This document shows positions 6,252-32,403 of a DNA stretch of 64,000 nucleotides, one piece after another. Position 1 is the first letter of the stretch; the number at the start of each line of letters is the position of its first letter. The notes under the pieces are model-generated. The model was not told the origin of the DNA. It saw only the letters and a list, made by a program, of their open reading frames with translations, and made no database searches. Origin of the DNA: Alphaproteobacteria bacterium (lineage in GTDB: Bacteria > Pseudomonadota > Alphaproteobacteria > UBA828); the NCBI GenBank assembly GCA_963667705.1, contig OY763937.1:515821-579820 (forward strand). Direction: 5' to 3'. The position numbers and the translations under genes were made by a program.

Positions 6252-6272
6252 CCTGCATTCCCGGCCGGCGTC

Positions 6273-7643: not shown

Positions 7644-7668
7644 GCGGGAGCGACACCACCTCCCGTCA

Positions 7669-11857: not shown

Positions 11858-12007
11858 GGCCATGCCGCAAGTTTGGCAATCGATCCGGCTCAAGGAGGCC
11901 CAACGATTTCAACCCAGCAGGTGAAGCGCGCCGAGCCCCTGCCCCATCAAGCGATATCGTGGTTCAGGAATTGACCACCCTGGACGGCGGTAGCAGCGGA
12001 GAGCCGC

Positions 12008-15264: not shown

Positions 15265-15380
15265 TACGGCGGGACTCCGACGAGCGCGCGATCACCCCAT
15301 GGCAGGCGCTCATGTCCGTATCGCCCCCCGGAACCGGAACGGTGAGCGGCGGCGTCCACTCCTATCGATACGCCATGGGG

Positions 15381-17876
15381 CTACGCGATCTTCCGTGAGG
15401 CAACAAACTCCCGATACGGCGCAAATGCGGCTGCGACCTGTTCGGTGGTGAGGCCGAAGTCCTTCAGGCTATATCGATGCGGTGGCTCCCGGCGACGTTG
15501 TTCCGCCTGCCGTTCGAGCCAGCTCTCCATATCGGCCGCAGCCGCCGGCTCGAGCCGCCAGTCGAACCGTTCGTAAATTTCGTTGACCACCGCCATCGGG
15601 TTCTCGACCAGGTCGCGGTAGCTCACATCGACCCAGCGCGCCTCGAGCTCGGGGCACGACGCCCGGAACCGCATCGCCTCGTTGAGCATGCCGCTCATCA
15701 GGTCCAGCTGCTCGGCACCGGTGTCGTGCCGCGGGCGCGGTTCGATGGAGACGGAGCGTATCCGGTCCACAAGGCTGTTCCACGATCCCATAAACTGCGT
15801 GGGCTCGCGATGGGTCTGGATAAAAACCGCATCCGGGTAGTTCGCGAGCAGCGCCTCCAGCTCCATGAGATGGAAGGGCATCTTGAGCAGCCAGCCCTTC
15901 CCGGCATCGGGCTCGCGCTGCCGGCGCTGCCAGGTGAAGTGCCGCATGACGCGACGGTGATAGGCGTAGGCATTGTCCGAACCGGTGGCGGCAAGCCAGC
16001 TGCGGTAGTCCGGCACGTAGTACGCGACGGCGTTGACCCAGGATGCGAAGGACTGCCTGAGGATCGGGAAATCCTCCTCGGGCTCGTCGATATCGATGCG
16101 GTGCATTTCGGCGAACTGATCCACGACCCGAATGGAGTCCAGCAACTCCTTCACGTGAGCCCGGCGCGGGTCGCCGGCGGTGCGCGCGACGGAGCCGTAC
16201 TCTCCGCTTGCCAGAACCGGCTCCGACAGCTCGTAGCGACGCAGCGTCCAGAATCTTCCGTCGCGCGCCATCATCCGGTGCAGAAACGTGGTGCCGGTTC
16301 GATTGATCCCCACGATGAACACCGGACGCACGATCTCCTCGCGCTCGATCTCGGGGTGCTGCTGCCACTCGCGGGCGAGCGCCGCATTGTTGCGAAGCTG
16401 GCGGTTCAGTTCGTAGACGAGGTGCGGGCGTCTCTCCTTCAGCAATCCGGCCTGTGGTGCGCTGAGTACCTCCACAAGGCGCTGGAATCCCGTACGCATC
16501 CACGCGGGAAACGTGTGGTCGAAGGGAACGCCGACGCGTTCGGCGTAACCCTCGGCCTGCGCCATCAGGCGGTCGAGGTCCAGGCGGGCTTTCGGCACCG
16601 GATAGGGCCACCCGTCGCCCTGTCGCCGTATCCAGTCGTAGGAGCGCGAATGCCGGAGGAGCAATGCCGGCCACTGGACAGGAAAGGGACAGTCCTCGCG
16701 AATGGCGCGATCGTCGACCGGAGCAACGCCGCCGGCCTCGCCGTCCGCGAACCAGTACGGTGCGAAGTAATCGAGAAGCGTCCACAGCCCGTGCAGCGGA
16801 GAGCGCTCTCCAAGCGCCTCGCAGGCACGCTTGAACGTCTCGTATGGAACTTCGCGCAAGTAGAGGCCGAAATCGGCCGGCCCGAAATCGTCGTGCGGAG
16901 GTTGCGGATCGCAGCAATGGTAGATTGTGAACCGCCGCTCGGGATTCGCCGAGATTGCGGCGCATATCTCGGTGAGCGTATCCACGGGCTCGGCACAGCT
17001 CTGTATGGAGAAGCCGGCGGGAGCCATTTCGACCTGTATCGCCGCGAGGTAGATGGAGAGCGCGACGGCGCTCGCGTTCGTGAATCCCGTGCTGGACATC
17101 CCTGTCTGCGGCAGGCGAAAAATCGCCACCGGCAGTCCGGCCGCGTTCGCGAAGAGCAGGACCTGTTCGGAAACGAGCTTGCTCCACGGGTATCCAAGGA
17201 AGCCGAGCGGCAACACCCTCTTCATGGTTGCCAGATCGGGCTGCATGTGGTGCTCGATACGACTGCGACTGAATTCGTTCGAGAAATTGCAGAAGTACTC
17301 AGGGAAAACGGCCATCGTGGAAGCGTAGAAGACGTGCTTGAAACGCGTTCGCAGGCACAACGCGAGCACATTGCGAAGACTGGTCGCGTTCACGTCGCGT
17401 ATCGAGGAGTAGGACGACACGAGGGAGAGGTCGGCGGCAAGGTGGTAGACCGCGTCGATGCGTCGGCACAGATCGTCGAATTCCGCATTGCTCAAGCCGA
17501 ATCGAGGCGCGCAAATATCCCCGGCCACGACCCGGATGCGCGGCCCGAATGCGTCGTCCCAGATCTCGGCGTGCTCCAGGGCGGCGCGTATCCGCGCGAA
17601 GCCATGCTCGACGCCGTCCGTGCGGACCAAGCAGTGCACCACGAGGCTGTCGTCTTGCCGCAGGAGATCGCGCAACAGAAAGCGGCCCACGAACCCGGTG
17701 GCGCCGGTCAGCAGGACTTCCCGGAAGTCGTTCGCCGATACCGGCTCGGCCGGCGATTCCTCCCCGATGGTGGAATGAACGAATCTGCGCAAACCGTCGA
17801 GGTCGCGCTGGCACTGCATCGGCAAGCGACCGGCGAGGGAGGGCACCGCGCAGGAAGCGGGGAGCGTTTCAGCCAT
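15381..17876 (-). CDS. Bifunctional thioester reductase (SDR-type R domain) and sulfotransferase fusion protein
   Basis: N-terminal LLTGATGFVGRFLL NAD(P)-binding motif and YPWSK (YxxxK), matching NRPS/PKS terminal reductase domains. C-terminal VFIVGINRTGTTFLHRMM is a PAPS-binding 5'-PSB loop of the sulfotransferase family. Confidence 0.8.
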   Translation of the reverse strand: MAETLPASCAVPSLAGRLPMQCQRDLDGLRRFVHSTIGEESPAEPVSANDFREVLLTGATGFVGRFLLRDLLRQDDSLVVHCLVRTDGVEHGFARIRAALEHAEIWDDAFGPRIRVVAGDICAPRFGLSNAEFDDLCRRIDAVYHLAADLSLVSSYSSIRDVNATSLRNVLALCLRTRFKHVFYASTMAVFPEYFCNFSNEFSRSRIEHHMQPDLATMKRVLPLGFLGYPWSKLVSEQVLLFANAAGLPVAIFRLPQTGMSSTGFTNASAVALSIYLAAIQVEMAPAGFSIQSCAEPVDTLTEICAAISANPERRFTIYHCCDPQPPHDDFGPADFGLYLREVPYETFKRACEALGERSPLHGLWTLLDYFAPYWFADGEAGGVAPVDDRAIREDCPFPVQWPALLLRHSRSYDWIRRQGDGWPYPVPKARLDLDRLMAQAEGYAERVGVPFDHTFPAWMRTGFQRLVEVLSAPQAGLLKERRPHLVYELNRQLRNNAALAREWQQHPEIEREEIVRPVFIVGINRTGTTFLHRMMARDGRFWTLRRYELSEPVLASGEYGSVARTAGDPRRAHVKELLDSIRVVDQFAEMHRIDIDEPEEDFPILRQSFASWVNAVAYYVPDYRSWLAATGSDNAYAYHRRVMRHFTWQRRQREPDAGKGWLLKMPFHLMELEALLANYPDAVFIQTHREPTQFMGSWNSLVDRIRSVSIEPRPRHDTGAEQLDLMSGMLNEAMRFRASCPELEARWVDVSYRDLVENPMAVVNEIYERFDWRLEPAAAADMESWLERQAEQRRREPPHRYSLKDFGLTTEQVAAAFAPYREFVASRKIA

Positions 17877-18136
17877 CTCCTGTCTCGCTCGCTACCGGGG
17901 ACGCCGAACCTGAGCCCACCCGGTCGCCGCGGACTGCGACTGCCGGGCCGCGGATCGGAGACCGAGCAGCCAGGGAGTGCTCGGGTCTTCAGAACCAGGG
18001 GTGCGACGCTGCGGAGGAGGCCGTGTCCGATCCATGAGTGCCACCCTCCCAACAACGTGCCGCAAGGAGGCATGCAGGTTTCGGTAACGTGACGGTGTCC
18101 TGGTCGGTATGGAATCCGGGCCGGTCTGGCGAATGG

Positions 18137-21100
18137 TCAGGACTCCGACGTCATTTCGTTTCGGCTCGCACAGAGCACCGGCGGAAAGTGATCTTCCAGG
18201 ACGCTTGCGAATTCCGACGGCCTTCGGCGCCCGCGGAGCCGACCGGAGAGAGGCGCGTCCGCGCTCTCCACTGCATCGGTCTCGCCTTCCACTTCCTCGG
18301 GCTGTTCCGCTCTGTGGACGATCGCATGCGCCAAGGACTGGCAGGTGGCGGTGGTCATCAGCTCCAGAGCGCTGACCTGGAAGTTGAACTGATTCTGAAG
18401 AAACGCCACGAGCTCGGCAACGGAGATCGAATTGAATCCGAAACTCGCCAACGGCTCGTCCATGTCGCCTTCATCGTGGCCGCATAACTCGGCGACCTTC
18501 TCGGCGATCTGCGTCATCACGGTTTCGAGCGTGAGCCGGTCGTCGGAATGACCCTGGAACGCATCGTGGTTGCTCATCAGGCGGCCGATGCGCATGTAGT
18601 CCGCAGAGTCAACGGTCAACGGAACCCGCTTGAACAGCGCGGTCACAAGATGGTCGCTGTCGGACAGTCTGCGCAGCGCGTAGTCGAGGTTGGCGATTGC
18701 GAAGTGAACGCTCACCGGGGGCATGCCGGCCATCCTCAGCATGCGCAGTACATGGTGGTTACGCGAGGCCATGCCGACCTCGGCGACCGCCGCAATGTTG
18801 TAGGACAGCGCCGGCAAACCCTGCCCGCGGCGCCACGTTGCGAGGCCATCGAGGTAGGCGCTGGCGGCGCTGTAGTTGATCTGTCCGGGATTGCCGAAGG
18901 TCGAGGCAGTGGACGAGACCATGACGAAGAGGTCGAGCGGATGCCCGGCTGTCGCCCGGTGAAGATTCAGCGCGCCGGTCGCCTTGGGAGCGAACACCGT
19001 CTCCACGGATTCCCGCGACATGGTGTCGAGCAGACGGTCATCGAGTACACCGGCGAGGTGAAAGACGCCCTTGAGCGGGCGGCGCAGGCTGGCGACGCAG
19101 CGCTCCACGTCCGCCGCAATCGCGACATCGCCCGCGACGATGTCGATCTCGCATTCATGGGCCATGTATTGCAGCGAGCTCGATTCGCGCAACCAGTCGG
19201 CGCTACGGCGACGCTCAGGGTCCCGATCCATCAACGTGAGATGGCGGGCTCCGACTGAGACGAGATAGGGCAGCAGGCACAGACCGAATCCGCCGAGGCC
19301 GCCGCTCACGAGGTAGGTCGCATCGGGGTCGAGCAGCGGGCGCCGGTCGACGATCGGGAACTGCGGATGAACACCGGCCGGCGGGGACCTGAGCACCAGC
19401 TTCCCCTGATGCTTGCCGCTGGTCATCAGGCGCAGGGCCTTCGCGTAGTCCTCGTAGTCGTAGACGGTGATCGGCAACGGCGGCAGTTCGCCCCGTTCGA
19501 GCAGGTCGAGACAGGTCTCGGAGAGTCGGCGCAGGAGCCAGGGGTCGTCGACCATCAGGCGATCCACGTCGACCGCGGCGAAGCGCAGGTTCTTGCGGAA
19601 GACGTAGAGGCCCAGCGGATTATCGGAGTAGATGTCGACCTTTCCGATCTCGCAGTGCCAACCGCCCGGACGCAAGGCCTCTAGACACAGCGCGAGGTGA
19701 CGGCCGGCGAGGGAGTTCAGGACCACGTCGACACCTTCGCCGCCTGTCGCTCCCATCAACTGGTCGTACCAGCTCTCGCTGTGCGAATCGAACGCCGCGC
19801 TCGCACCGAGCTCGAGAAGCCGATCACGCTTGGCCTCGCTTCCCGCCGTTGCGTAGATCGTCGCCCCTGCGCGCCTGGCAAGCGCGATGGCGGCCTGTCC
19901 CACTCCGCCCATGGCGGAGTGAATGAGGACGCTCTGACCTTCGGACAGCCGAGCCAGGTGAACGAGGGCATAGTACGCGGTGAGGTAGACCGAGAGCGAA
20001 GACGCGGCTTGCTCCATGTCGAGGCGGGCAGGCTTGGAAAACACGAGGGGGGCGTCGACGACTGCCCGATTGGCGATACATCCGCCCTGGGTGAAGATCA
20101 CCTCGTCGCCGGCCAGGCAACGGTCCACCCCCTCGCCGACCCGGCGCACGACTCCACTGGCTTCCATGCCGACCTCCAGCCCCAGCGCGGAGCGTTCGTA
20201 GGCCGCCGAGGGCAGCAGTCCCAAGGTCGCCATGACATCGCGGAAGTTGAGCGCCGCCGCCTTCACGTCGACCTCCACCATCCCCGGCCCGAGCGCCGCG
20301 GGTTCGTACGTCTTCATCTGCAACCCGCCGATCTGCCCCGGGTTGTCCAGGCACAGGCGGTAGGTGGTTTCGTCGCCGGCGGGGACGCAGGGAGCATGGT
20401 CGCGAATGCTTTCAATGCGGGGTACCCACAGGCGGCCCCCCCGCACCGCGACCTCCCGATCGCGCAGATCGCAGCGAGCGAGCGAGGCCAGGGTCTTCAG
20501 GTCGTCGTCGGCACCGAGATCCACCAGACGGAAGTCGATTCCGGCATCCTCGCCCACCTCGATCGCCATGCTGCGAACCGCGCCCCACAGGCCGCACCCG
20601 CGCGGGTCTTGAACGTCAAAGGCGGCGCCCCGAGTCACGACGGTGACGCGGCACCGGGACTCCGCATGCTCGGTCCGGTACGACACCAGCGCCCGGACGA
20701 GGGCGACAAAGGCCGACACCACCCCCTCACCGGTAGGGTCCTGCGGATCGCGACCGCAGAAGAAGTCGACGGCCTGCAAGTCCGCCACCCGAGGCCATTC
20801 GTCGATGTCGTGGACCTCGCCGCAGACGAGAGGCTCAAAGGCAATCGGGTACACCTCCGGATCATCGAGCAGGGACGGCCAGTCCTGCGCCGGGCTCTGC
20901 GGCTCGCCCACCACCCAACGGGGTGTCGGAACAGCCGTCGCATTCAGGGGTTTCGCCCACGACTGCGGGGCCTGAAGCAGGGTGCTGCGCGCGGCGGCGC
21001 GAACGACGGCCCAACCGGCGCCGGGTTCGAGCACGTCGCCTTCGGAGTGAGAGACCAGTGCCAGGCCTCCGGCCACCAGCAAGCGTCTCCAGAACTCCCA

Positions 21101-24100
21101 GTCCCCGGGGGCGAATGCGGCCGCATCGCGATGCAGAAGGAGCACCTCCACCGCAGCCGGGCGCAGCAGGCCCTCATCGAGTGCAGTCGCCTGGCACTCG
21201 GCCGCGTCGATGCATTCGAATCGCAGAGCGGCGTCGGCTGCGTGAAACGCCTCGTAGCTCTTGCCGGCGCTATCTTCATCGTGGCTGACGAGCCAATACT
21301 CGCTCTGCCGTCCGGCACCCGACAGGTGCCCGACGCATTGCTCGAGCATGGTCTGCTCGGGCTCCCTGCACCCTGCGAACTCCAAGACGCGGCACGCGCG
21401 GTCCGCTCCGTCAACGGGTTGTTCGAGAGCGGCGAGCAACTCCGCAGGGTCGATGTCGCCGGCGGACAGCCGGTCGGCGAACGCCCGGCCGTTCGGCAGG
21501 AACTTGGGCTGCCAGACGATCCGGTGCTTGCTGTGAGGCAGGTCGCCCCTTTTCAGGTTCGAGTCGAAATGGATGTATTTCTGGACGTAGGCAACGAGGG
21601 CTCCATTGGATTGGTCGTAGAAGCTGATGCTGCCCGACAGCCGCTCGCCCTCGGACGGGTTGAATTGACCCTTGTCGTCGATATCCACGGCTCGATCGGG
21701 AGGATCCCTCAGAAGACAGGTCAGCCGCGGTCCCGACGCCACACCGAGAAACGTCATGTGCTCGATTCGCCGCGGGATGCACAGGTGATCGGGAGTAAGC
21801 AACATGTTGTAGAGAAACGCCTGAAATGCGCCGTCGATCAGCGGGGGGTAGAAGACGTACCCCTCATCTCTGCCGTCGGCCCACAGGGTTTCGTCGATTT
21901 CGAGATCGGCCAGGAAGGACCGGGTCGCCTCGTCGCGCTGAATCTGCCGGATGTTTCTGCAGTGGGGGCCGTAGCCGTACGTATCGCCCAGAACCGCCTC
22001 GAAACGTTCGTAGAGTTCCTCTCCGGAGGCATGCTTGAGGGGCGCGTAGGCGGAGCGGTCGATGTCTCCGAGCCGGCCTGGAGCGTCCAGCGCCGGCGGG
22101 TCGCTCAACACGCGCACCTTGCCCCGACAGTGCGACTCGCTCCTGGTGTCCTCGCCGTAGGGCCGGGTGGAAATGACGAAGGTGTATTCGGACGGGGAAT
22201 TGGCGACCGGATGCAGCGCCGTCTGCAGGCGCACCGGCGTTCTCGGGACCGGGCAAGGCTGAAGAAACTCGATCACGTCGAAGTGCACCGGCGCCCCGCC
22301 GAACGCCTCGAGAATCATCTCGATGTAGCCCGTCGCCGGCATGATCGCCGCGTGATGGACCACGTGGTCGGCGGCCCACGGAAAGGCCCGGTCAGAGAAA
22401 CGCGCCTCGAACATCAGGTGATCGCACGGGATCCGGTGACCGACGAGCGGGCCGTGAGAGTACTCGGCTCCCTGATTGTGGAACTCGTCGTCCGCCATGG
22501 TATCCGCCTTCTTCTCCTCGTCCTTCGGATGTCCGGGCAGCAGGTGAGGAAGGGGCTCCGGGCGCGGGTACCGGGAGGCAAAGTCGAGCGGCACGCCGGC
22601 TCTGAACAATGCCCCCAGCGATTCGAGAAAACCGATGCGCGTATCGCTGTCGCGCATGAATGTCGCGATCGAGGTCGGGGCGGACACACCGTCGGCCAAG
22701 CATTGTGCGATGACGGGCTGCAGCGCGCAGTGCGGCGCAAGCTCGAGCACCGCCTGCGGCCGGTGGTCGCGCTTGACGGCGTCCATCGCGGCGGCAAAGC
22801 GCACGGGCTGGCGGATGTTCGACCACCAGTACGCGCTGTCGAGGCGCTCGGTGAGGCTGCCGGTCACGGATGAAACGAAGGGAACGTCGAGGTCGAAGGC
22901 CAGCTCGTCGAGGAAGGACAGCGCCGCCGCCACGTCCTCCCGGATGGCGTCCATCGCCCGGGAGTGAAAGGCGATGTTTCCGGGAACCAGTCGATTCTGC
23001 AGGTTGCGCCGTTCGAGCTCCTCGATGACAGGCTGCAAGGCGGTTTCGCTGCCGCAAATGACGGTATTGGCCGGCGCATTCTCGCAGGCGATCTCGACCT
23101 GGACCGGCCGGTTCGCATCGAGCCGGAAGGGAACTTCGAGGGTGTCCAGCAACTCCTCGACGCCGCAACGATCGAGGCCGATCGCCAGCATACGGCCCGA
23201 CCCGGCGGCGCGTTGCTGCAACGTGGCGCGATGGAAGACCAGTCGCGTCGCGTCTCCCAGGGAAAGCGCTCCGCAGGCGTAGGCTGCGGCCACCTCGCCG
23301 GAGCTGTGGCCGACCACGCAGTCCGGATAGACTCCCCAAGTCTTGAACAATTCGACGAGCGCGCACTGGAGCATGAAGATCACGGGCTGGGCCAGCTCGC
23401 ATTCGTCGAGCTCCGACTGCGGCGCGGAGAAGCAGGCCTCGCGTAGCGAGACGTCCGAATGTTCGCGCCAGTGCGCCTCGATCGCGTCGATGACGCGGCG
23501 AAATACGGGGTCGGCGCCATAGAGCGCGCGGCCGCAACCGGCCCACTGCGTGCCCTGTCCGGCGAACACCATCGTCAGCCGCGGCTCGCCCTCCTCTGCG
23601 GTCGCAACCGGGGCGCGTTCCTCCGCAACGGCATCGAGCCCCTCTTCGAGCTCCTCCAAGTCGCGCACCGCAAGCGCGGCGCGCGTGGAGAAATGGGTGC
23701 GACGGCGGCTGAGATTGCCGGCCAGCGTATAGAGATCCACAGGCCGCCGGTCGAGCATCTCGCGAAGCTGCCCCGCGCTTAGGGCGAGCGACTTCGCATT
23801 GCGCGCCGAAAGGGGAATGACGTAGCCGGCCTCCGGAGCCAGGGCGACCGACCAGATGCGGGGACGCGCCGGGCGGTACTCGCGCACCACACAGTGCCCG
23901 TTGGCGCCGCCGAAGCCGAAGGAGTTGATGCCGACGACGACGGGATGTTCGGGAAAGGGCTCGACCTCCGTCTGCACCCGCATCGGGCAGCGGTCGAAAT
24001 CGATTTCGGGATTCGGCACCAGGTAGTTCTTCGATGTCGGCGCGAAGGTGCGGCGCTGCATCATCAGGACGACCTTCAGCATCGCGCAATGGAATGCGGC

Positions 24101-25192
24101 CGCTTCCATATGCCCGACGTTGCTCTTGACGCTCGAGACCCGAAGCGGCACCTCGCGATCGAACCCGCCGAACGCCTCCGCGATGGCATTGCCTTCGATC
24201 CGGTCTCCCACCACGGTTCCCGTCGCGTGGGCTTCGACGTAGTCGAACTCCCGGGCAGTGCGCCCGGCACGGGCGGCAGCGGTGCGCATCAGCTCGACCT
24301 GCGCGTGACGGGTCGGCGCGACGATGTTGCGACCGGGGGGCAGGCCCACGGCGTCGTCCGCCGCGCCGGCCGCGTTGACCGCGCTCGCCTCGATCACGAC
24401 ATGAATGGGATCTCCATCGCGCTCCGCCGCGGCCAGGGGCTTCAGCGCGAAGATGAATGCGCCTTCGGAGCGCATGTAGCCGTCGGCCTGGGCGTCGAAG
24501 GAGTGGCACTTACCTTCCGGGCTGATGACCCCCATGAGGTTGAAGCTGCTGCTCAGCCTTGCGCTGCCCAGGTAGGTAACAGATCCGACGAGCGCCTGAT
24601 CGCAGTCGCCGCACTGAAGGGCGTTCATGGCCGAGTGCAGCGCGCTCAGACCGGCGGAACATGCCGTGCAGTACGCGATCGAGGACCCCATGAGGTTGAA
24701 GTGGTACGAGATCCGGTTGGCCAGCATGGCCACGCTGATGCCGATGACGGAGTACTCGCTGACGCCATGCTGAGGCCGCCAGCTCGACACGGCCGGAACT
24801 TGTGCCCCGATGAACACTCCGGTGGAGCTATTGCGCAGTGCATGGAAGTCCCAGCCGGCATGCTCGATCGTCTCCCACGCGCAGTTCAGCAGCATCCTGA
24901 CCTGCGGTTCCGTCTTCATCATTTCGTTGTGGGACATTCCGAACAGTGTGCGGTCGAAGAGCAGCTCGTTGCTGTCGCGGATCAGTCCTTCCCAGGGACT
25001 GGCAAGGCGCCCCGGGCCAGAAAACTCCCCGATCGGCAGGTGGCCTTTGCCGTAGCGATCGGTGATCGGCTCCTGGACGATCTCGCGCTCGGCGAGCAGG
25101 CGCCAGAAATCGGAGTCCGAGCGGATGCCACCGGGCAGGCGGTGGCCGTATCCCACGATGGCGACGTCGCTTTCTCTCCTCTGCGACGTCAT
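18137..25192 (-). CDS. Type I polyketide synthase, fully reducing single module (KS-AT-DH-psiKR/linker-ER-KR-ACP). FAS/mycocerosic-acid-synthase-like. No thioesterase.
   Basis: KS active site TACSAGL with HGTGT and NVGH motifs. AT motif GHSSGE with IAFHS, which predicts malonyl specificity. DH HxxxAxxxxP-like motif. ER motif LIHSAMGGVGQAAIALA. KR Rossmann motif YLVSGGLGGFG. ACP motif GFNSIS. Confidence 0.95.
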   Translation of the reverse strand: MTSQRRESDVAIVGYGHRLPGGIRSDSDFWRLLAEREIVQEPITDRYGKGHLPIGEFSGPGRLASPWEGLIRDSNELLFDRTLFGMSHNEMMKTEPQVRMLLNCAWETIEHAGWDFHALRNSSTGVFIGAQVPAVSSWRPQHGVSEYSVIGISVAMLANRISYHFNLMGSSIAYCTACSAGLSALHSAMNALQCGDCDQALVGSVTYLGSARLSSSFNLMGVISPEGKCHSFDAQADGYMRSEGAFIFALKPLAAAERDGDPIHVVIEASAVNAAGAADDAVGLPPGRNIVAPTRHAQVELMRTAAARAGRTAREFDYVEAHATGTVVGDRIEGNAIAEAFGGFDREVPLRVSSVKSNVGHMEAAAFHCAMLKVVLMMQRRTFAPTSKNYLVPNPEIDFDRCPMRVQTEVEPFPEHPVVVGINSFGFGGANGHCVVREYRPARPRIWSVALAPEAGYVIPLSARNAKSLALSAGQLREMLDRRPVDLYTLAGNLSRRRTHFSTRAALAVRDLEELEEGLDAVAEERAPVATAEEGEPRLTMVFAGQGTQWAGCGRALYGADPVFRRVIDAIEAHWREHSDVSLREACFSAPQSELDECELAQPVIFMLQCALVELFKTWGVYPDCVVGHSSGEVAAAYACGALSLGDATRLVFHRATLQQRAAGSGRMLAIGLDRCGVEELLDTLEVPFRLDANRPVQVEIACENAPANTVICGSETALQPVIEELERRNLQNRLVPGNIAFHSRAMDAIREDVAAALSFLDELAFDLDVPFVSSVTGSLTERLDSAYWWSNIRQPVRFAAAMDAVKRDHRPQAVLELAPHCALQPVIAQCLADGVSAPTSIATFMRDSDTRIGFLESLGALFRAGVPLDFASRYPRPEPLPHLLPGHPKDEEKKADTMADDEFHNQGAEYSHGPLVGHRIPCDHLMFEARFSDRAFPWAADHVVHHAAIMPATGYIEMILEAFGGAPVHFDVIEFLQPCPVPRTPVRLQTALHPVANSPSEYTFVISTRPYGEDTRSESHCRGKVRVLSDPPALDAPGRLGDIDRSAYAPLKHASGEELYERFEAVLGDTYGYGPHCRNIRQIQRDEATRSFLADLEIDETLWADGRDEGYVFYPPLIDGAFQAFLYNMLLTPDHLCIPRRIEHMTFLGVASGPRLTCLLRDPPDRAVDIDDKGQFNPSEGERLSGSISFYDQSNGALVAYVQKYIHFDSNLKRGDLPHSKHRIVWQPKFLPNGRAFADRLSAGDIDPAELLAALEQPVDGADRACRVLEFAGCREPEQTMLEQCVGHLSGAGRQSEYWLVSHDEDSAGKSYEAFHAADAALRFECIDAAECQATALDEGLLRPAAVEVLLLHRDAAAFAPGDWEFWRRLLVAGGLALVSHSEGDVLEPGAGWAVVRAAARSTLLQAPQSWAKPLNATAVPTPRWVVGEPQSPAQDWPSLLDDPEVYPIAFEPLVCGEVHDIDEWPRVADLQAVDFFCGRDPQDPTGEGVVSAFVALVRALVSYRTEHAESRCRVTVVTRGAAFDVQDPRGCGLWGAVRSMAIEVGEDAGIDFRLVDLGADDDLKTLASLARCDLRDREVAVRGGRLWVPRIESIRDHAPCVPAGDETTYRLCLDNPGQIGGLQMKTYEPAALGPGMVEVDVKAAALNFRDVMATLGLLPSAAYERSALGLEVGMEASGVVRRVGEGVDRCLAGDEVIFTQGGCIANRAVVDAPLVFSKPARLDMEQAASSLSVYLTAYYALVHLARLSEGQSVLIHSAMGGVGQAAIALARRAGATIYATAGSEAKRDRLLELGASAAFDSHSESWYDQLMGATGGEGVDVVLNSLAGRHLALCLEALRPGGWHCEIGKVDIYSDNPLGLYVFRKNLRFAAVDVDRLMVDDPWLLRRLSETCLDLLERGELPPLPITVYDYEDYAKALRLMTSGKHQGKLVLRSPPAGVHPQFPIVDRRPLLDPDATYLVSGGLGGFGLCLLPYLVSVGARHLTLMDRDPERRRSADWLRESSSLQYMAHECEIDIVAGDVAIAADVERCVASLRRPLKGVFHLAGVLDDRLLDTMSRESVETVFAPKATGALNLHRATAGHPLDLFVMVSSTASTFGNPGQINYSAASAYLDGLATWRRGQGLPALSYNIAAVAEVGMASRNHHVLRMLRMAGMPPVSVHFAIANLDYALRRLSDSDHLVTALFKRVPLTVDSADYMRIGRLMSNHDAFQGHSDDRLTLETVMTQIAEKVAELCGHDEGDMDEPLASFGFNSISVAELVAFLQNQFNFQVSALELMTTATCQSLAHAIVHRAEQPEEVEGETDAVESADAPLSGRLRGRRRPSEFASVLEDHFPPVLCASRNEMTSES

Positions 25193-25326
25193 GCTGTCGC
25201 TCGGGGTCTCGGCACGACGGCAACGGCCGCGAAGCGGCCAGACACGCGTGCATGCCTATTGTGCCTCGATAGCATAGCCTTCAGGTCACTTGATGGGTTG
25301 TCGACGACTGTGCATGGTGCTTGATT

Positions 25327-25338
25327 TGTCATGTGACA
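25327..25338. promoter_or_regulatory. Perfect 12-bp palindrome TGTCATGTGACA nested inside a larger inverted repeat (CACTTGATG...CATCAAGTG) upstream of the PKS gene. Candidate operator.
   Basis: Direct reading of the sequence. It lies in the 250-bp gap between the RND gene stop and the PKS start. Confidence 0.3.
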
Positions 25339-25444
25339 TCAAGTGGTTGACATTGGAGTCATCCAGGGTGATTGCGACGGGAGATTCGGCAAACGACTCT
25401 CTGCTGCCCATGTTGTCCGCCGTAAAGCGCGCGACGGGCCGCGA

Positions 25445-28400
25445 TTAGTCGTGACGACCCGCGGCGATCATCACCAGCGCCGGCAGCACGAACAGGATCG
25501 AAAGCGTGGAGAACACAAGTCCACCCACCATGCTGACGACGAAGGGCACGAACGCGATCAGCTCATCGCCGCGCTCATAGAGCAGGGGCGAGATCCCCAG
25601 CACCGTGGTGAGGGTGGTCAGGAACACCGGCCGGAATCGCTGCCGTGTCGCCGCGGCTGCGGCGGCGATGGCGGGGATCATCGCGTTGTCTCGGCGGATC
25701 GTGTTGTAGCGATCCAGCAACACGAGAGCGTCGTTCACGACCACGCCGCCGACGGCAATCATGCCGAAGATCGACATGGTGGTCAGGTCCCAGCCCAGGA
25801 TCCAGTGGCTCACGATCGCGCCTGCGAAGGCGATCGGAATGCCCACGACCGCAATCACCGGCTTCCAGTAGCTGCGCAGGAACGCCGCGATGAGGGCGTA
25901 GATCGCGATCAAGACGATGGGGACGAGAACCGCCAGCGTCTCGAGCATGTCGCCCTCGTCCCGCGCACCGGCTTCGACCTCGACAGTGAGGCCGGGATAT
26001 GCCGCCAGAAGGTCGGGAATGATCTGGTCGCGAACCTCCCGCCGCGCCTGAATCGGCGTGATCACCGCAGTGTCCGCCCGCCCGTTGACGCGCGCCGCCC
26101 GCTTGCCGTCGATCCGCGTCAGCGTCGCCGGCTCGCGCTTCTCGGTGATCGTCGCCACCAGCGAAAGCGGGATTTCGCCGCCACCCGGCCGATGGATTCG
26201 TTCGCTGGCCAGCTCGCTCAGGCTGCGCCGCCGCTCGGCCGGATACCTGACCACCACGTTGATTTCCTCGCGGCCCCGCTGGATGCGCTGGACATCCGCG
26301 CCGTGGAAGCTGGAGCGTAGCTGCTTTCCAATGAGCGCCGGCGTCAGCCCGGCAGCCTTCCCTACCGGGGTCAGCTCGATCTCGAAGTGGCGTTTCCCCA
26401 GCGCCAGGTCGTCATGGATGCCGTAGATCCCCGGCACGGTCGCCATCCCCGAGCGCAACTCGGCGGCGGCGCTTCTCAACGTCTCCATGTCGTCGTGCTT
26501 GAGCGAATAGGAAACGCTCGGCCTAGCGGCAATGCGCCCGGAGCGGAATTCGACTCTCTCCAGGTTCGCCACGGGACCGACGGCCTTGCGCCATGCCCGC
26601 TCGACTTCGGGCGCGCTCGCGGAGCGATCCACCTGATCGCTGAGATGCAGCCGCACGGAGGCGAGATGGCTGCCGTTCAGCCGCTCTCTGACTTTCCACT
26701 CCGCATCGATGTTGCCGACGATCATGCTCACCGCGTCGACAGGAGTTCCCTCAAGCTCGTCGTTGAGGCCGTGCGCCGCCTCGGCGAAGCGATCGGCTGC
26801 GGCCAGCGTCTCCTCGAACGGCGCGCCCACCGGCAGATAGATGTCCGCCTGCACGTTGTCGGTGCTGCTCAGGTTCTCGTCGAAGAGGACGATGCGAACG
26901 GTGTCGGTTCCGAGGAGCAGGACGGCAGCGACCAGAACCAGGAGTGCGCCTATGATCGACAGCCAGACGTTGCGCACGGCCCATGAGGCCGCAGGCGCCA
27001 CGACCCGGTCGCGCACCTCGTCCAGCCATCCGCCGACCTGGCTCTGCACGTCGCTCAGCGGAGAGAGGCTCCAGCGCCTTTCGTGAGACAGGTGAGCCGG
27101 AAGGATGAAGAATGCCGCAACGAGGGAGACGAGCAGGACGAAGATCGCGACGTAGGGAAACACGTTCACGATCTGGAACGCGGGCGACGTGATGAAAAGG
27201 AACGGCAGGAATGCCAGAATCGTCGTGATGGCGCCGATGGTGAGCGGGCCTACCATGGCACGCGCGCCGGAAATCGCTGCATCCAGCGCGTTCTTCCCCT
27301 TCTCGCGTTCCGCCGCGATGCTTTCCCCCACCACCACGGAATCGTCCACGACGATGCCCACCAGGAGGAAGAAGCCGAAGATCGTGCCGAGATTGAGCGT
27401 GAGGTCCGCAGCATCGAAGAAGAGCAGCGAGCCTACGAAGGACAGGGGGATGCCGACGGTCATCCACAATGCGATGCGGAGCTCGAAGACCAGAACGAGG
27501 CTGATGAACACCAGGATCGTGCCGATCGCTCCGTTCTTCACGATCTCCAGCAGCCGGTCGAATACGGGGCTGGCATTGTCGTTCCAGATTCCGACGCTCA
27601 CGCCTTCGGGCGGGCTGTAGGCCGCAAGCAGATTCCTGATGTCCTCCGCCATATCGACGACCGACTGCTGCTCGGCCGCATCGACGCGAACGAGCACCGC
27701 CGGATGGCCGTTGACCTCGGTAACCACGTCCTCGTCGACGAACCCGTCGCGAATCGTGGCGATGTCGCCGAGCGTCACGATCGTGCCGCCGACCCGGGTG
27801 ATGAGCGGAATGTCCTCGAAATCCTGGCCGACGCTCTTCTTGGCGACGGTGTGAAGAACCACGCTGCCGGTGTCCGTCCGTATCTCGCCCATGGTGAGGT
27901 TGAGGGACGCCCCTCTTATCGTCCTGGACACTTCGGCGATGGAAAGGCTGTGGCGGCGCAGTTCCTCTTCGCTGAGCTCGATCGTGATTTCGCGGTCGCG
28001 GGTGCCTTTCAGAGACACCTGAGAGACGGACGGCAGCGCCATCACGCTGTCGCGCAGGTCTTCCGCCGCGCGGCGCAGTCCGTCCTCGGACAGACTGGAG
28101 GACACGACCGCCAGCGTCATGACTTCGTGGGAGACCGTGAGAAGCTGGACGTCCGGCTGTTCCGCCCGGACCGGCGGGAAGTTCTCGATGCCGTCGATCG
28201 CACTCTGAATATCGTTGAAGACGGCGTCGGAATCCGCGAAGGTCGCCATCTCCACCGTGACCTTGCCGAGGCTCTGGCTCGCGGTCGATACCACGCGCTC
28301 GACGCCCGGCAGCCCGACGACGGCCTCCTCGATGCGGCGGTTGATGTCCTCCTCGACCTCCTGAGGCGAAGCGCCCGGATACAGCACCGACACGGCGGCC

Positions 28401-28600
28401 CGCCGCGATTCGAAATCCGGGTAGTACTGGACGATGAGTTGGAGCCCCGAAAGCACGCCGCCGACGATCAGCAGGATCATCAGCAGGTTGGCGGCAACGG
28501 GATTGCCGGCGAAGTAGGCGATCAGCCCCGACTTCAGGCCAGTCGGGCTCGGCTGCGCCGCGGGCGCGGCGTCGGTGCTGCCGGAGTCGGTCATGCTCAT
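25445..28600 (-). CDS. RND-family efflux transporter permease (AcrB/HAE1-like)
   Basis: 1051 aa, 12-TM architecture with two large periplasmic loops. The N-terminus is typical of RND permeases. Confidence 0.9.
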   Translation of the reverse strand: MSMTDSGSTDAAPAAQPSPTGLKSGLIAYFAGNPVAANLLMILLIVGGVLSGLQLIVQYYPDFESRRAAVSVLYPGASPQEVEEDINRRIEEAVVGLPGVERVVSTASQSLGKVTVEMATFADSDAVFNDIQSAIDGIENFPPVRAEQPDVQLLTVSHEVMTLAVVSSSLSEDGLRRAAEDLRDSVMALPSVSQVSLKGTRDREITIELSEEELRRHSLSIAEVSRTIRGASLNLTMGEIRTDTGSVVLHTVAKKSVGQDFEDIPLITRVGGTIVTLGDIATIRDGFVDEDVVTEVNGHPAVLVRVDAAEQQSVVDMAEDIRNLLAAYSPPEGVSVGIWNDNASPVFDRLLEIVKNGAIGTILVFISLVLVFELRIALWMTVGIPLSFVGSLLFFDAADLTLNLGTIFGFFLLVGIVVDDSVVVGESIAAEREKGKNALDAAISGARAMVGPLTIGAITTILAFLPFLFITSPAFQIVNVFPYVAIFVLLVSLVAAFFILPAHLSHERRWSLSPLSDVQSQVGGWLDEVRDRVVAPAASWAVRNVWLSIIGALLVLVAAVLLLGTDTVRIVLFDENLSSTDNVQADIYLPVGAPFEETLAAADRFAEAAHGLNDELEGTPVDAVSMIVGNIDAEWKVRERLNGSHLASVRLHLSDQVDRSASAPEVERAWRKAVGPVANLERVEFRSGRIAARPSVSYSLKHDDMETLRSAAAELRSGMATVPGIYGIHDDLALGKRHFEIELTPVGKAAGLTPALIGKQLRSSFHGADVQRIQRGREEINVVVRYPAERRRSLSELASERIHRPGGGEIPLSLVATITEKREPATLTRIDGKRAARVNGRADTAVITPIQARREVRDQIIPDLLAAYPGLTVEVEAGARDEGDMLETLAVLVPIVLIAIYALIAAFLRSYWKPVIAVVGIPIAFAGAIVSHWILGWDLTTMSIFGMIAVGGVVVNDALVLLDRYNTIRRDNAMIPAIAAAAAATRQRFRPVFLTTLTTVLGISPLLYERGDELIAFVPFVVSMVGGLVFSTLSILFVLPALVMIAAGRHD

Positions 28601-28612
28601 GGCCCGGCTCCG

Positions 28613-29797
28613 CTATTCCGACGCCTGCGCGGCGCTGACCTCGACTGCCAATCCCTCTCGCGCCCCCGTCAAGGTGCCGACGACGACGCCCTCGCCCGCG
28701 TCGAACGCCTCCACAACCACGCCAACGTCGGCGTGCCCCAGCGTGCGCGGCGCGACGGCCTTCAGCGCGCCGCCTTCGACGATCCAGACGCTGCCCCGGT
28801 CCTGAATTGCCGATTCCGGCAGTACGAGCACGTTGTCATGCACGGGCCCAGCGATCGAAACCTCCACGAACGAACCGGGGAGCGGCAGCGTCTCGGCCGG
28901 GTGAGCCGCAGCGAATTTCAGGAAGACCCTCGCGAGACGAGACTTGGGACCGATGATCGCAGACGTGCGCTCCACCACAGCGTCGTACGTTCCTGATGCA
29001 GTCCGAACCGTGGCGGAGCGACCGATGGCCGGCGCGAGATAAGCCAGACTGTCCTGCTCGATGGGCGCTCTGACCTGGAGCGCGTCGGTCCGATACACGG
29101 TGCCCAATGACGAGGCACGGCCGACCAGCTCGGCGGGACCGACGAACTGGCCGACATCGATATCCGCCGCTGCGACCCGGACGTCGTGAGGAAGGGATAT
29201 CTCCGTTCGATTCAGCCGGAGCTGCGCCAGCTTCTCTTCGGCCTGCGCCTTCATGAGCGCGGCTTCCGCCTTCGCTATGTGTGGCGCGCGGCGAACCGAA
29301 TCGGGAATGTCGGCTCCGGGGTGTTCGCGCGTGAACGAGGCTACGCTTTCCTCCGCCTTTGCCTTCTCGATCTGGACCCGGGCCGCAGCTTTCGCGACCT
29401 TCGCGGCGGCGACTTCGAGCTCGAGCTCGTACTCGGCCGGATCGACCCTGATGATGGTCTCGTTCGCGGCGATCGACCCGCCGTTTCTGAAACTGGGCGA
29501 GACCCAGACCACACGGCCGCCGACTTCGGACGAGACTCTCACGTTCCCGTGCAGCGTGACCCCGCCGGTTAGGTCGACCGTCAGCGCGTGTTCTGTTGGC
29601 GTCGGTTGAATGACCGCGACGGTTGGCTTGGCCTGCTCGACCGCCAGGTCGGAGATGGGGTCGCGATCCACGCCGCTCGGCGCCTGCGCGAAATAGAGCG
29701 CGACTCCGACGGCGGCCAATATCAGGATCAGCTGCGCGTAGCCCAACCATTTGGGACGGCCGGATCTACCTTGGGGCTCTGTCGTTTCTTGTGCCAT
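28613..29797 (-). CDS. RND efflux periplasmic adaptor (membrane fusion protein, HlyD family)
   Basis: N-terminal TM anchor, coiled-coil and lipoyl/beta-barrel regions. It lies immediately upstream of the RND permease, 12 bp away. Confidence 0.85.
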   Translation of the reverse strand: MAQETTEPQGRSGRPKWLGYAQLILILAAVGVALYFAQAPSGVDRDPISDLAVEQAKPTVAVIQPTPTEHALTVDLTGGVTLHGNVRVSSEVGGRVVWVSPSFRNGGSIAANETIIRVDPAEYELELEVAAAKVAKAAARVQIEKAKAEESVASFTREHPGADIPDSVRRAPHIAKAEAALMKAQAEEKLAQLRLNRTEISLPHDVRVAAADIDVGQFVGPAELVGRASSLGTVYRTDALQVRAPIEQDSLAYLAPAIGRSATVRTASGTYDAVVERTSAIIGPKSRLARVFLKFAAAHPAETLPLPGSFVEVSIAGPVHDNVLVLPESAIQDRGSVWIVEGGALKAVAPRTLGHADVGVVVEAFDAGEGVVVGTLTGAREGLAVEVSAAQASE

Positions 29798-30059
29798 CGC
29801 TCATTCCGAGTGCGTCTGACCAGGGCTCCACCGATCCGACTGCGCCAAGCGTACAGCCCGCGGCGCCGGACGTTGCTATCCGCCCCGCTTCCTTCGTATT
29901 CGACAGCAAATCACGTGAATTGTGAGGAGGCCGAAACCGTCGCTCCAAAGTTCAGCGACGGGTTGGCTGCCGATCGCCGCCTCGCTGGGCTTGACAGTCC
30001 TCAGTGTACCCTGCCTCCGTCGTGATTCCCTGTCAGCCAGGGCGGATAGGAGGCACACG

Positions 30060-31802
30060 TCAAGCCACCGCGGATCGCGCGACTTCATTCGCGCTTGAAT
30101 CCAGTGCGCGTTGGAAGGACTCCAGCGCATCCTCCAGCCCATCTCCCCGGTAGCGAAACTCATCGGGTATGGTCTGGTAGCGCGCCTGGGCTCGCTCGAA
30201 CGACGCCTGTCTCCGATTACTGAATTCCTCCGCCTCCGAAACGCGGTCAGGCACCGCCTCTGGGAACATCTGCAGCTCGCTCCTCAGGAAGCTCAGAAAG
30301 TCATGGATGGCGATCTGCTGACGGCCGATCCGCTCGAAGTGGTGACCCATGGCCGCCAGGTAGATCGCGTCCGGCAGCATGCGGGGGTAGTCCTTGGAGA
30401 CCTTGCCGATGAACTTCGAATAGGCATGAAGCTGCTTGGCGGAGAGACAACGGCGAACGCGCATGAAGGCTGCATCGATGTCGTTCCTGCTCCTGGGCTT
30501 TCGAAGATGCCCGACGGGCTTCAGATGCCTGAACAGAGTGAGGCAGCGGCCGAAGTAATTCTCCAGGGTCGGATCGTAGAGTGTGGCGAGCACCCGTTTG
30601 TATCCCTCGATCAGTGTCCTGTAGTCCATCTCCGGCTTGAAGTTGAGAGGCATGGCATTGGTTCCGATCGGCGCCTCCAGAAGCCGGTTTTCCGACTTCA
30701 TGCGCTCGTACATGTCCGTGCCCTTCAAGGCGGTCAACAGGTAGATGGGGGCTACGGGAATGCCGGTCTCCTGGATGAACTCGATCTGGGCATCGAACAC
30801 GCCCTCGTCATCGCCATCCAGACCCAGGATGAACCCGCCTTGGACCTGCATCCCACGCTGCTGGATTTTTCGGACGGCAGTGAAGATGTAGTTTTCCTGG
30901 TTCTTGCTGGTGTTCTGCGGCTTCTTGGTCTTGAGTAAGGCCTTGGGGTTCGGGGTCTCGATACCGACAAACACGGTATCGAAGCCGGCCTCGATCATCG
31001 CATCCATCATTGCGTCCATCAGCGCAAGATTCGCACTCGCTTCCGTGGTCAGGGTGAAGGGATATCCCTTGCTCTTTTGCCATTCGGCTATCGCCGGCAG
31101 CAGGTTCATGGCATCCCGCTTGTTGCCGATGAAGTTGTCGTCAACCAGAAAGACCGGGCCTCGCCACCCCAGACGGTAGAGGGAATCAAGCTCCTCCGAG
31201 ACCTGTTCCGGCGACTTGGTGCGAGGCACGCGGCCATAGAGCTTGATGATGTCGCAGAACTCACAGTCGAACGGACATCCCCGAGAGAACTGCACGCTCA
31301 TGGTGGCGTAGTTCGTCAAGTCGATGAGGTCGAAGCGGGGAACCGGCGTCAGGGTCACGTCCGGCTTCCGTGTTTCCCGATAGATTCTCTTGGCCGTGCC
31401 GGCTTCCAGGTCCCGAAGGAAATCCGCAAAGATTTCCTCGGCCTCGTCCAGCACGAAGTGGTCCACGCCTGCGATGTCCTGGTGAAAGGTGGTCGGATGA
31501 GGCCCGCCGGCCACCACTGGAACGCCCGCGTCGTTGCAGCGTTCGACCACGGCTCGCAGCGACAAGTGTTGCGTGATCATCGTGGACGTGAACGCAAGAT
31601 CCGCCCACTCAAGATCGGCGTCGCGCAGCGTACTCACGTTCATGTCCACCACGCGGAGCGCATAGCCGGGAGGGAACATCGCGGCGACGGTCAGAAGCCC
31701 GAGAGGTGGAAAGGTCGCCTTGAGCCCCGACATCTCGAGCGCGTGGTCGGCCCCCCAGAAGGTCGGCGGCTGCTCCGGGTAGACGAGCAGAGCGTTCGGC
31801 AT
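30060..31802 (-). CDS. B12-binding-domain radical SAM protein with a C-terminal DUF4070 (class B radical SAM, methyltransferase-like)
   Basis: CxxxCxxC motif (SRGCPFDCEFCD), an N-terminal cobalamin-binding-like domain, and a C-terminal extension typical of the HpnR/BchE-like group. Confidence 0.85.
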   Translation of the reverse strand: MPNALLVYPEQPPTFWGADHALEMSGLKATFPPLGLLTVAAMFPPGYALRVVDMNVSTLRDADLEWADLAFTSTMITQHLSLRAVVERCNDAGVPVVAGGPHPTTFHQDIAGVDHFVLDEAEEIFADFLRDLEAGTAKRIYRETRKPDVTLTPVPRFDLIDLTNYATMSVQFSRGCPFDCEFCDIIKLYGRVPRTKSPEQVSEELDSLYRLGWRGPVFLVDDNFIGNKRDAMNLLPAIAEWQKSKGYPFTLTTEASANLALMDAMMDAMIEAGFDTVFVGIETPNPKALLKTKKPQNTSKNQENYIFTAVRKIQQRGMQVQGGFILGLDGDDEGVFDAQIEFIQETGIPVAPIYLLTALKGTDMYERMKSENRLLEAPIGTNAMPLNFKPEMDYRTLIEGYKRVLATLYDPTLENYFGRCLTLFRHLKPVGHLRKPRSRNDIDAAFMRVRRCLSAKQLHAYSKFIGKVSKDYPRMLPDAIYLAAMGHHFERIGRQQIAIHDFLSFLRSELQMFPEAVPDRVSEAEEFSNRRQASFERAQARYQTIPDEFRYRGDGLEDALESFQRALDSSANEVARSAVA

Positions 31803-32403
31803 GAGCGTGACCGGCCCCTGTCAACTGGCCGGCTCGTATGTTAGTGCATTGCCGACTTATGGGCCAAGTGAGCTGACGAGGGGGTGTGGACTGCGGTCGG
31901 ACAGAACTTCGGCAAGCGCACGGCGCCCTCAAGTTGTTGTTGGCGGTCACTTAAAGGCGCGGATATTCGATCAACAATGGCGGCTGGGCGGTTATCAGCC
32001 GAGGGACCTGTAATCCTAAATCCGGTAGTTGCCGACGATGGACAGCCGGTTTTCGGGGCGGACTTCATCCCGCCAGCGCTGCCTGAGGCGGCGGGAGCCA
32101 GGGTTGTCGGCCCGAACTGCGGCAGCAGAGGTACTTCTTGAGCGCTTCCGCTTGGATTCGGCGCCAGCGATAATCGGCACTCGACTGCTCCGCACCCCGC
32201 ATCAGCGTATCGAAGAAGCCGGTGATCCGCCGCAAGACCGCGACGACCTCGATCCGTCGCCCGTGGCTCGACATCACCGTCAGCCGCGCGACCGGCGTGG
32301 TGGTGGGTCTGGCGGCCAATCCCGTGGAGAAGAAGCGACCGGCTGGTGATCGGCTCCCGGTGGTGATCAAGATCGGCCAGGAGCACGAACAGACCCCACG
32401 GGT

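Follow-up and report, generated by a model that had tools for sequence, protein, structure and literature searches.

What lipid is made by the five minus-strand genes at positions 15381-31802 of a 64,000-nt stretch of DNA from an Alphaproteobacteria bacterium (GenBank contig OY763937.1), and how did these genes reach the genome in which they lie? The whole stretch is called the window here, and all coordinates are positions in it unless a related locus is named. The genes encode an iterative polyketide synthase (PKS), a fusion of a thioester reductase (R) with a sulfotransferase (ST), a radical SAM protein, and both parts of a resistance-nodulation-division (RND) efflux pump, the permease and its periplasmic adaptor (membrane fusion protein, MFP). 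By motifs and architecture, on which the assignment rests, the window genes are a copy of the swf cluster of sponge symbionts, and the swf genes together with the RND/MFP pair are cargo of a 43.8-kb integrative mobilizable element (IME) that extends from approximately 9611 to 53424. The window thus holds a new swf copy of a chemically unsolved family; what is new is the island that carries it, the linkage of swf to genes for transporters and for PAPS (3'-phosphoadenosine 5'-phosphosulfate) synthesis, and the mosaic build of the gene set.

Della Sala et al. defined swf, short for "sponge widespread fatty acid synthase", from sponge metagenomes in 2013 (PMC3908369). In that description swfA encodes a protein with ketosynthase (KS), acyltransferase (AT), dehydratase (DH), enoylreductase (ER), ketoreductase (KR), and acyl carrier protein (ACP) domains in the order KS-AT-DH-ER-KR-ACP, swfB encodes a thioester reductase plus a sulfotransferase, and swfC encodes a B12 radical SAM protein (PMC3908369). 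An alkyl sulfate, optionally methylated by SwfC, was proposed as the swf product at the same time (PMC3908369). A sequence-only reading of the window had taken the gene combination to be undescribed; this does not stand, since swfA, swfB, and swfC were reported in 2013 with the same alkyl-sulfate hypothesis (PMC3908369). Later surveys (2014, 2022, and 2023) found swf across phyla and still called its function unknown, and a taxonomy-independent distribution was reported in a later survey. Our literature search returned no swf product and no characterised R-ST pathway beyond the 2013 hypothesis, and the swf literature found (2013 and the later surveys) reports neither linkage to a transporter nor carriage on a mobile element. 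The window copy has the same three genes as the published swf, with the same domain architectures, SwfA signatures, R-ST fusion, and B12-binding radical SAM protein, but it has an RND/MFP pair between swfC and swfA and lies on an integrative mobilizable island, apparently as the second copy in its genome.

All five open reading frames (ORFs) were recovered on the minus strand at exactly the coordinates of the earlier gene calls, and all have the coding signature GC3 > GC1 > GC2 in a genome of roughly 70% GC. Domains were called by Pfam profile search, NCBIfam served for the RND_mfp assignment and for an equivalog check, and matches to solved structures come from the PDB. The swfB gene (15381-17876) encodes the fusion of a thioester reductase and a PAPS-type sulfotransferase, and swfA (18137-25192) encodes an iterative monomodular PKS/fatty acid synthase (FAS). 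These are followed by the gene for an AcrB-like RND permease (25445-28600; ACR_tran, E = 6e-128), a facultative accessory module, and by that for the adaptor (28613-29797; HlyD_3 and RND_mfp, TIGR01730), which lies 12 bp upstream of the permease gene. Permease and adaptor both stay under the NCBIfam subfamily cutoffs (381 against 1250 and 84.7 against 94.9). The last gene, swfC (30060-31802), encodes a B12-binding radical SAM protein of class B, methyltransferase-like, with B12-binding, Radical_SAM, and DUF4070 domains. Because dN/dS against the closest relatives is approximately 0.2 in each of the five genes, they are maintained by selection; all five are under purifying selection.

The swf family was surveyed through relatives of the R-ST protein, which are encoded in 139 stretches of one-genome-per-species data; 80 loci were kept for the census, and the counts given below for RND/MFP are limited to the DNA fetched around each locus. 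Almost all of the 80 loci are from metagenome-assembled genomes of uncultured bacteria, some with sponge-associated names (Candidatus Poriferihabitaceae), and they are spread over Alpha- and Gammaproteobacteria, Nitrospirales, Acidobacteriota, Latescibacterota, Rhodothermales, Binatia, Tectimicrobiota, and others. The swfA gene adjoins swfB in 69-73 of them. The SwfB of the window is 95% identical to a homologue in locus L001 (numbers with L are our designations for related loci and contigs) and groups at 70% identity with Paracoccaceae/Boseongicola-type sequences; several SwfB clusters at ≥70% identity mix phyla, which speaks for horizontal transfer of swf in general and agrees with its reported taxonomy-independent distribution. 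Full-length SwfB was found on no plasmid in PLSDB.

The Pfam profile of SwfA consists of KS, KS-C, AT, PKS_DH_N/PS-DH, ADH_N/ADH_zinc_N (the ER), KR, and PP-binding matches in KS-AT-DH-ER-KR-ACP order, with neither a thioesterase (TE) nor a C-methyltransferase domain. Active-site motifs read from the sequence are TACSA around the KS cysteine, GHSSGE and IAFHS in the AT, HVVHHAAIMP and DGAFQ in the DH, GGVG in the ER, GGLGGFG with Ser/Tyr/Asn in the KR, and FNSIS around the ACP serine. Motifs and Pfam therefore agree with the domain order, malonyl-type AT, and missing TE that had been described for this protein before, and no thioesterase domain was found by Pfam in any of the five proteins. 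The published SwfA signatures include, in the KS, HATGT in place of HGTGT and a change of the second Q of DPQQR to I or V, and, in the AT, IAFH, an unusual GHSSGE, and a SwfA-specific QCALVEL; identity among the published SwfA, SwfB, and SwfC examples exceeds 58% (PMC3908369). In the window SwfA, HATGT is found at residue 322, QCALVEL at 609, GHSSGE at 628, and IAFHS at 740; DPQQR is not present, and EPQVR stands in its place at approximately residue 94. HATGT, GHSSGE, and IAFH each occur in 58/58 full-length SwfA homologues from related loci, and DPQQR in 0/58.

In three close relatives (L085-L087), swfA is called as two ORFs of 789 and 1549 aa (for example at 14606-21185 of L085), which reflects either a frameshift or pseudogene or an assembly error. 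The same split was discussed for a 'poribacterial' example (PMC3908369).

SwfB matches NAD_binding_4 (PF07993) over residues 56-292 (E = 2e-48; 165 bits against a cutoff of 20.1) and Sulfotransfer_3 (PF13469) over residues 518-776 (E = 2e-34; 120 bits against a cutoff of 27). Among solved structures the R half (residues 46-351) is best matched by MxaA (4u7w, E = 1e-40), next by the PKS R domain 8v1x, and then by carboxylic-acid reductases. It has a Rossmann motif TGATGFVG, a YAST motif, and a Y-x3-K motif in the form GYPWSK, aligned to GYAQSK of MxaA. MxaA reduces its thioester fully to the primary alcohol. The two reductases share an SDR-type (short-chain dehydrogenase/reductase) fold, TGxxGxxG, and a Ser/Thr-Tyr-Lys triad, whereas SwfB is free-standing, would act in trans on the ACP of SwfA, and is fused to an ST; a four-electron reduction is predicted.

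The ST half (residues 502-819) matches 2zq5 (E = 2e-36) and 2z6v (E = 8e-23), which we take to be mycobacterial Stf1 and Stf9 and presumably glycolipid-type sulfotransferases. As in these Sulfotransfer_3 structures, to which SwfB aligns over approximately 320 residues, a 5'-phosphosulfate-binding (5'-PSB)-like motif and a 3'-phosphate-binding (3'-PB)-like motif are in register: GINRTGTT of SwfB aligns with GLVRTGTT of 2zq5, and QTHREPTQFMGS of SwfB with QTHRPVETIMAS of 2zq5. We take both motifs to be PAPS-binding. SwfB differs from the two structures in that its ST is fused to a reductase and that its acceptor is presumably a fatty alcohol rather than a glycolipid. In an alignment with 118 homologues, the NAD(P)-binding, YxxxK, NRTGTT, and THRxP...S motifs are invariant or nearly so, and the order R then ST is kept in more than 900 homologues of the same architecture. 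The linker between the halves is short (residues ~370-425) and leaves no room for a further domain. Hence the family assignment of the fusion and its retention of PAPS-binding residues, on both of which the earlier proposal had depended, are borne out by the two motif sets and the Pfam families, and SwfB is, as had also been held, the only visible release or tailoring enzyme, acting in trans. Because its R domain is closest to MxaA and its ST has both PAPS-binding motifs, a reduce-then-sulfate logic is a reasonable prediction for SwfB.

SwfC carries the CxxxCxxC motif as CPFDCEFC at residue 176. Its NCBIfam similarities are weak and sub-threshold, to B12-radical SAM methylases, HpnR, PhpK, a "ladderane" radical SAM, and BchE, and its best match to a solved structure reaches only E = 6e-10. 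Published SwfC proteins have CX3CX2C, and swfC is optional, being missing in one published example (PMC3908369); it is present in 45-50 of the 80 loci.

These features can be joined into a pathway. SwfA would act iteratively, in the manner of an FAS, on malonyl units to build a saturated or largely saturated acyl-ACP. The R domain of SwfB would release this chain reductively with NAD(P)H, via the aldehyde, as the primary alcohol, and its ST domain would then sulfate the alcohol with PAPS as donor, so that the product would be a long-chain alkyl sulfate. An unactivated carbon in the chain is the probable target of SwfC, for methylation or some other modification. The RND/MFP pump, or in other lineages a pump of the major facilitator superfamily (MFS), would move the anionic amphiphile from the inner membrane or periplasm through an outer-membrane channel encoded on the chromosome. 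The island would have entered by means of its tyrosine integrase between the genes for an O-methyltransferase (OMT) and an M20 peptidase, and its transfer would need a helper type IV secretion system (T4SS). As the joint best explanation, an alkyl-sulfate pathway encoded by a swf cluster and RND/MFP pair that are both cargo of the island seems to us likely.

Two known systems resemble the proposed pathway. The heterocyst glycolipid (hgl) system with DevBCA/TolC likewise combines an FAS-like PKS, release of the chain as a fatty alcohol by reduction, a polar head group, and an exporter encoded nearby, but swf has a single monomodular PKS, a sulfate for the sugar, and an RND or MFS pump for the ATP-binding cassette (ABC) exporter. 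Membership in that system was rejected, as the island has no glycosyltransferase and no DevBCA-type ABC exporter and there is no membership at the sequence level. The ACP-ST-TE modules of CurM/OLS also pair a PAPS-type ST with a PKS acting on a fatty chain; unlike these, swf has no TE, its ST follows R on a separate protein and belongs to another ST subfamily, and the sulfate acceptor would be the C1 alcohol rather than the beta-hydroxyl used in CurM/OLS. Membership in the olefin modules was rejected because none of the five proteins has a thioesterase.

Sulfation might instead serve only as activation, by a CurM/OLS-like logic without a TE, with the sulfate leaving to give a terminal alkene or an alkylated or ether-linked product and SwfC possibly acting on the intermediate. 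Sulfate is a leaving group in curacin biosynthesis, the possibility has been raised for swf itself, and sponges are not known to contain alkyl sulfates widely, although such compounds would be missed by the standard lipid work-up (PMC3908369). Against activation, the conserved neighbours of swfA and swfB in the 80 loci include no TE, eliminase, or acceptor-specific transferase, as only swfC and transporters recur there, and efflux pumps next to swf are in keeping with an end product that is an anion. We consider loss of the sulfate quite improbable.

A second departure from the alkyl-sulfate pathway concerns the acceptor: the ST could act on another hydroxyl, such as a mid-chain secondary hydroxyl left by skipped DH/ER cycles, or on a sugar or lipid, with R stopping at an aldehyde or alcohol that is put to another use. 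A sugar or lipid acceptor would be in keeping with 2zq5 and 2z6v, the nearest solved sulfotransferases, being of the mycobacterial glycolipid type, as we take them to be. No glycosyltransferase recurs near swf, though, and R and ST are fused throughout the family, joined by a short linker that leaves out any further domain, which argues that the product of R is the substrate of the ST. Iterative PKSs can skip reductions (PMC3908369), which would allow for the mid-chain hydroxyl. Sulfation of an acceptor other than the C1 alcohol appears improbable on balance.

The neighbourhoods of other swf loci bear on export and sulfation. At least 15 of the 80 loci, from Alpha- and Gammaproteobacteria and from Acidobacteriota and with L083 among them, have RND/MFP homologues next to swf, and these homologues occur in four placements: upstream co-oriented, downstream co-oriented, downstream convergent, and upstream divergent. 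In nine loci an MFS_1 (TRI12-like) gene abuts swfB (L031, L034, L039, L051, L054, L064, L065, L066, and L076; for example L066 12503-13960), and these include Acidobacteriota, Latescibacterota, and Terriglobia. In eight Nitrospirales loci a fusion of a CysN GTPase with an adenosine 5'-phosphosulfate (APS) kinase, for PAPS synthesis, is encoded shortly downstream of swfB (L019, L024, L027, L037, L038, L048, L049, and L057; for example L024 13108-14913); this linkage is the weaker evidence because it comes from one lineage. Two unrelated classes of pump and a PAPS-synthesis gene near swf fit an exported sulfated amphiphile.

A further gene recurs at these loci. In approximately 18 of them (Latescibacterota, Nitrospirales, and others), a small gene of ~115-125 aa lies just upstream of swfA. 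It encodes a STAS domain in L035 (176-523) and has no Pfam match in L057 (656-1027); a role in regulating swf is conceivable.

The sequence-only reading had described the five window genes as an apparent operon. The spacing does not favour this: the gaps are 262 bp between swfC and the MFP gene, 252 bp between the RND gene and swfA, and 260 bp between swfA and swfB, and only the MFP and RND genes, 12 bp apart, look operonic. The 260-bp swfA-swfB spacer contains no obvious element on inspection; in L083 the corresponding gap is 9 bp. Nucleotide alignments with related loci divide the set into blocks. The first covers swfB and swfA and runs on into the RND gene to the end of the fetched DNA, at 92-93% identity to L001 and L084; on the other side, this homology ends approximately 90 bp past the swfB stop. 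The second comprises MFP-RND with 240 bp upstream (25453-30039) and is approximately 90% identical to L081, L082, and L088. The third is swfC (30113-31807), which is inverted relative to L085-L087; in L002 swfC lies downstream of swfB. As judged from these alignments, the five-gene set is a mosaic and is not conserved as a unit. The proposed five-gene operon thus fails as a unit on its spacing, on the inversion of swfC, and on the near identity of MFP-RND to stand-alone copies: functional clustering is supported, and one conserved five-gene transcript is not supported.

How this mosaic came to its present site is answered by an empty copy of the site. Window positions 1-9614 align to positions 1144-10718 of contig L089, and positions 53425-63410 to 10704-20666, at 96-97% identity, with a 15-bp overlap between the two on L089. 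Both L089 and a further contig, L090, have nothing between the OMT and M20-peptidase genes. They have the gene order of the window on the left (GDH in L089 only, then SDR, 2-oxoglutarate oxygenase, OmpA, orf343, amidase, DUF6635, and OMT) and on the right (M20 peptidase, GGT, amidohydrolase, DEAD helicase, and GshB). The 11-bp sequence CGGAGCGAGCG is single-copy in L089 and present at both island ends in the window, as attL core at 9600-9610, with the island starting just after it, and as attR core at 53425-53435, with the island ending just before it. A generic repeat search missed these repeats and a k-mer search left the 11-mer among chance matches; it was recognised through the empty site. 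That L089 and L090 are deletions of an ancestral region is unlikely because the 11-mer is duplicated. The GC content of the island is 0.650, against 0.711 and 0.725 in its flanks. Among relatives of the OMT gene in the flank, the few with a name are labelled Rhodospirillales or Rhodospirillaceae.

The island carries its own mobility genes. A tyrosine integrase with Arm-DNA-bind_3, Phage_int_M, and Phage_integrase domains is encoded 58 bp inside the left end (9668-10981, plus strand). Beyond the swf genes are genes for a MOBF (TrwC) relaxase-helicase (32404-36735, minus strand; TrwC, E = 9e-68, plus AAA_30), which is ≤31% identical to plasmid MobF proteins, a single-strand DNA-binding protein (SSB; 39801-40334, minus strand; Pfam SSB), and a type IV coupling protein (T4CP) of the VirD4/TraG type (42999-44975, plus strand; T4SS-DNA_transf, E = 1e-39, and TraG-D_C). 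The earlier proposal of a horizontally transferable element is upheld by the integrase, relaxase, and coupling protein, and its borders are now exact by the att repeats and the empty site. The island shares with IMEs that have a MOBF relaxase and a T4CP the end integrase, short direct repeats, relaxase, T4CP, SSB, lower GC, and an empty site; it differs in the divergence of its relaxase from plasmid MobF, in having no mating-pore genes, and in its cargo, a 16-kb lipid/PKS cluster. None of 88 other loci has these mobility genes near swf.

Other parts of the island and its borders may be described briefly. An AEP-type primase (AEP-TOTE, E = 3e-100; 12008-12874, plus strand) and a ResIII/DEAD helicase (Pfam; 12577-14430, plus strand) are encoded next to the integrase. 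The two ORFs overlap in different frames, and translation of the helicase probably begins close to the primase stop codon. The primase strongly matches the 'TOTE conflict system' AEP model, and the pair (12008-14430) could be a replication module of the island or a defence-related module. Between the relaxase and SSB genes, a YAcAr (YspA/SLOG-family) protein is encoded at 37825-38760. Toward the right end, GC falls to 0.55-0.60 in 46000-53000, well under the rest of the island. This region holds three repeat-rich minus-strand ORFs (47749-50106, 50206-51111, and 51261-52859). Repeats of 195 bp occur at 49277-49812 and repeats of 63 bp at 52489-52697, and two of the three ORFs have TbpB_B_D or Slam-dependent surface-lipoprotein-like C-termini. 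The block, recognised by GC, repeats, and domains, may have been acquired separately as a second cargo. At 47017-47384, in a low-GC and apparently non-coding stretch, lies an 84-bp tandem array (4.4 copies, 72% matches). The ORF at 53294-54832 spans the right att repeat and is over-extended; its L089 orthologue has 422 aa, so its true start is near 53563. The tRNA-Gly(GCC) gene at 59767-59841, the only Rfam match in the whole window, was considered as a target of integration and rejected, since it is located among core genes 6 kb beyond the island.

The host seems to have held one swf type already, to which the island adds a second, foreign one. A second SwfB paralogue, P0092 (843 aa), apparently of the same genome, is 62% identical to the island SwfB, and its mate in a 90% cluster belongs to L083 (2714-16889), where swfA and swfB are accompanied by a convergent RND-MFP pair. 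The L083 swf locus is flanked by two acyl-CoA-ligase genes and has no swfC, and L083 and the empty-site contig L089 come from the same metagenome.

Several observations weigh against the joint reading of an exported alkyl sulfate made and moved by cargo of a mobile island. Its chain length, degree of reduction, SwfC reaction, and ST acceptor are all points that we infer. None of the five proteins reaches an NCBIfam equivalog cutoff, and TIGR01746 scores 189 bits on SwfB, under its 213-bit cutoff. In the sole reported attempt at expressing a swf cluster in E. coli, no new metabolite appeared (PMC3908369). A promoter/terminator consensus scan of 14.5-32.6 kb gave 0 promoters, and terminators at chance level, and is uninformative. 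The island has no genes for an outer-membrane factor, a phosphopantetheinyl transferase, or PAPS synthesis, and no excised or circular form of it was observed. Pfam found no mating-pore T4SS genes (VirB4 and others) on the island, where, bar a 785-aa lipoprotein-like ORF, no unannotated ORF is large enough for T4SS; because it has no mating-pore genes, we file the element as IME-like and not as an integrative conjugative element. To these points are added those on the pump, given below: its close stand-alone copies and the upstream region that it has in common with them.

One may ask on this ground whether the island is an immobile remnant whose swf copy is redundant or decaying cargo. Besides the missing T4SS genes, no excisionase was recognised on it, the host apparently has another swf cluster, and swfA is split in the relatives L085-L087. 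Yet the integrase, the relaxase, the coupling protein, and all five swf and RND/MFP ORFs are full length, the direct repeats are intact, and dN/dS stays near 0.2. Moreover, a contig exists with flanks 96-97% identical and no insert, so the insertion is recent. A decaying remnant is therefore unlikely in our judgement.

The role of the pump can also be questioned, as the RND/MFP pair may be a general pump that came to lie beside swf by recombination or hitch-hiking rather than a dedicated exporter. Copies with ~88-91% protein identity occur in L081, L082, and L088 between amidase and OsmC genes, with no swf gene within ~10 kb, and the window copy keeps the 240-bp region upstream of the MFP gene (29798-30039) that is common to these stand-alone loci; approximately 60 of the 80 swf loci have no RND gene in the fetched flanks. 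Set against this, the pair is found next to swf repeatedly, in four orientations and in divergent lineages that include Gammaproteobacteria and Acidobacteriota, an MFS pump takes the same position in nine other loci, and the chance of finding a given RND family within ~10 kb is estimated at a few percent. A general pump rather than a dedicated exporter is possible, if doubtful. Because stand-alone copies of ~90% identity exist with their own upstream DNA, the RND pump is a neighbour that recurs but is facultative, and the pathway does not include it as a fixed component.

Few PKS/FAS clusters are as widespread in sponge microbiomes as swf, and in the literature found its product is unreported more than 10 years on. 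The window offers a complete and intact swfA, swfB, and swfC set with an adjacent pump, under purifying selection, that is usable for heterologous expression, and the recurrence of pumps of two classes and of a PAPS-synthesis gene in Nitrospirales fits a PAPS-dependent, exported, sulfated product. A delimited mobilizable island with an empty site offers a physical explanation for the taxonomy-independent distribution of swf, and the island is a plausible vehicle that moves a presumed sulfated-lipid trait between bacteria. More speculatively, and we put this forward as a rather unlikely extension, swf could be a mobile "symbiosis lipid" cassette spread among unrelated sponge symbionts by such elements, with a (methyl-branched) long-chain alkyl sulfate placed by dedicated RND or MFS pumps on or outside the envelope and mediating interaction with the host. 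If this were true, these alkyl sulfates would be a class of bacterial lipids overlooked by standard lipid work-ups.

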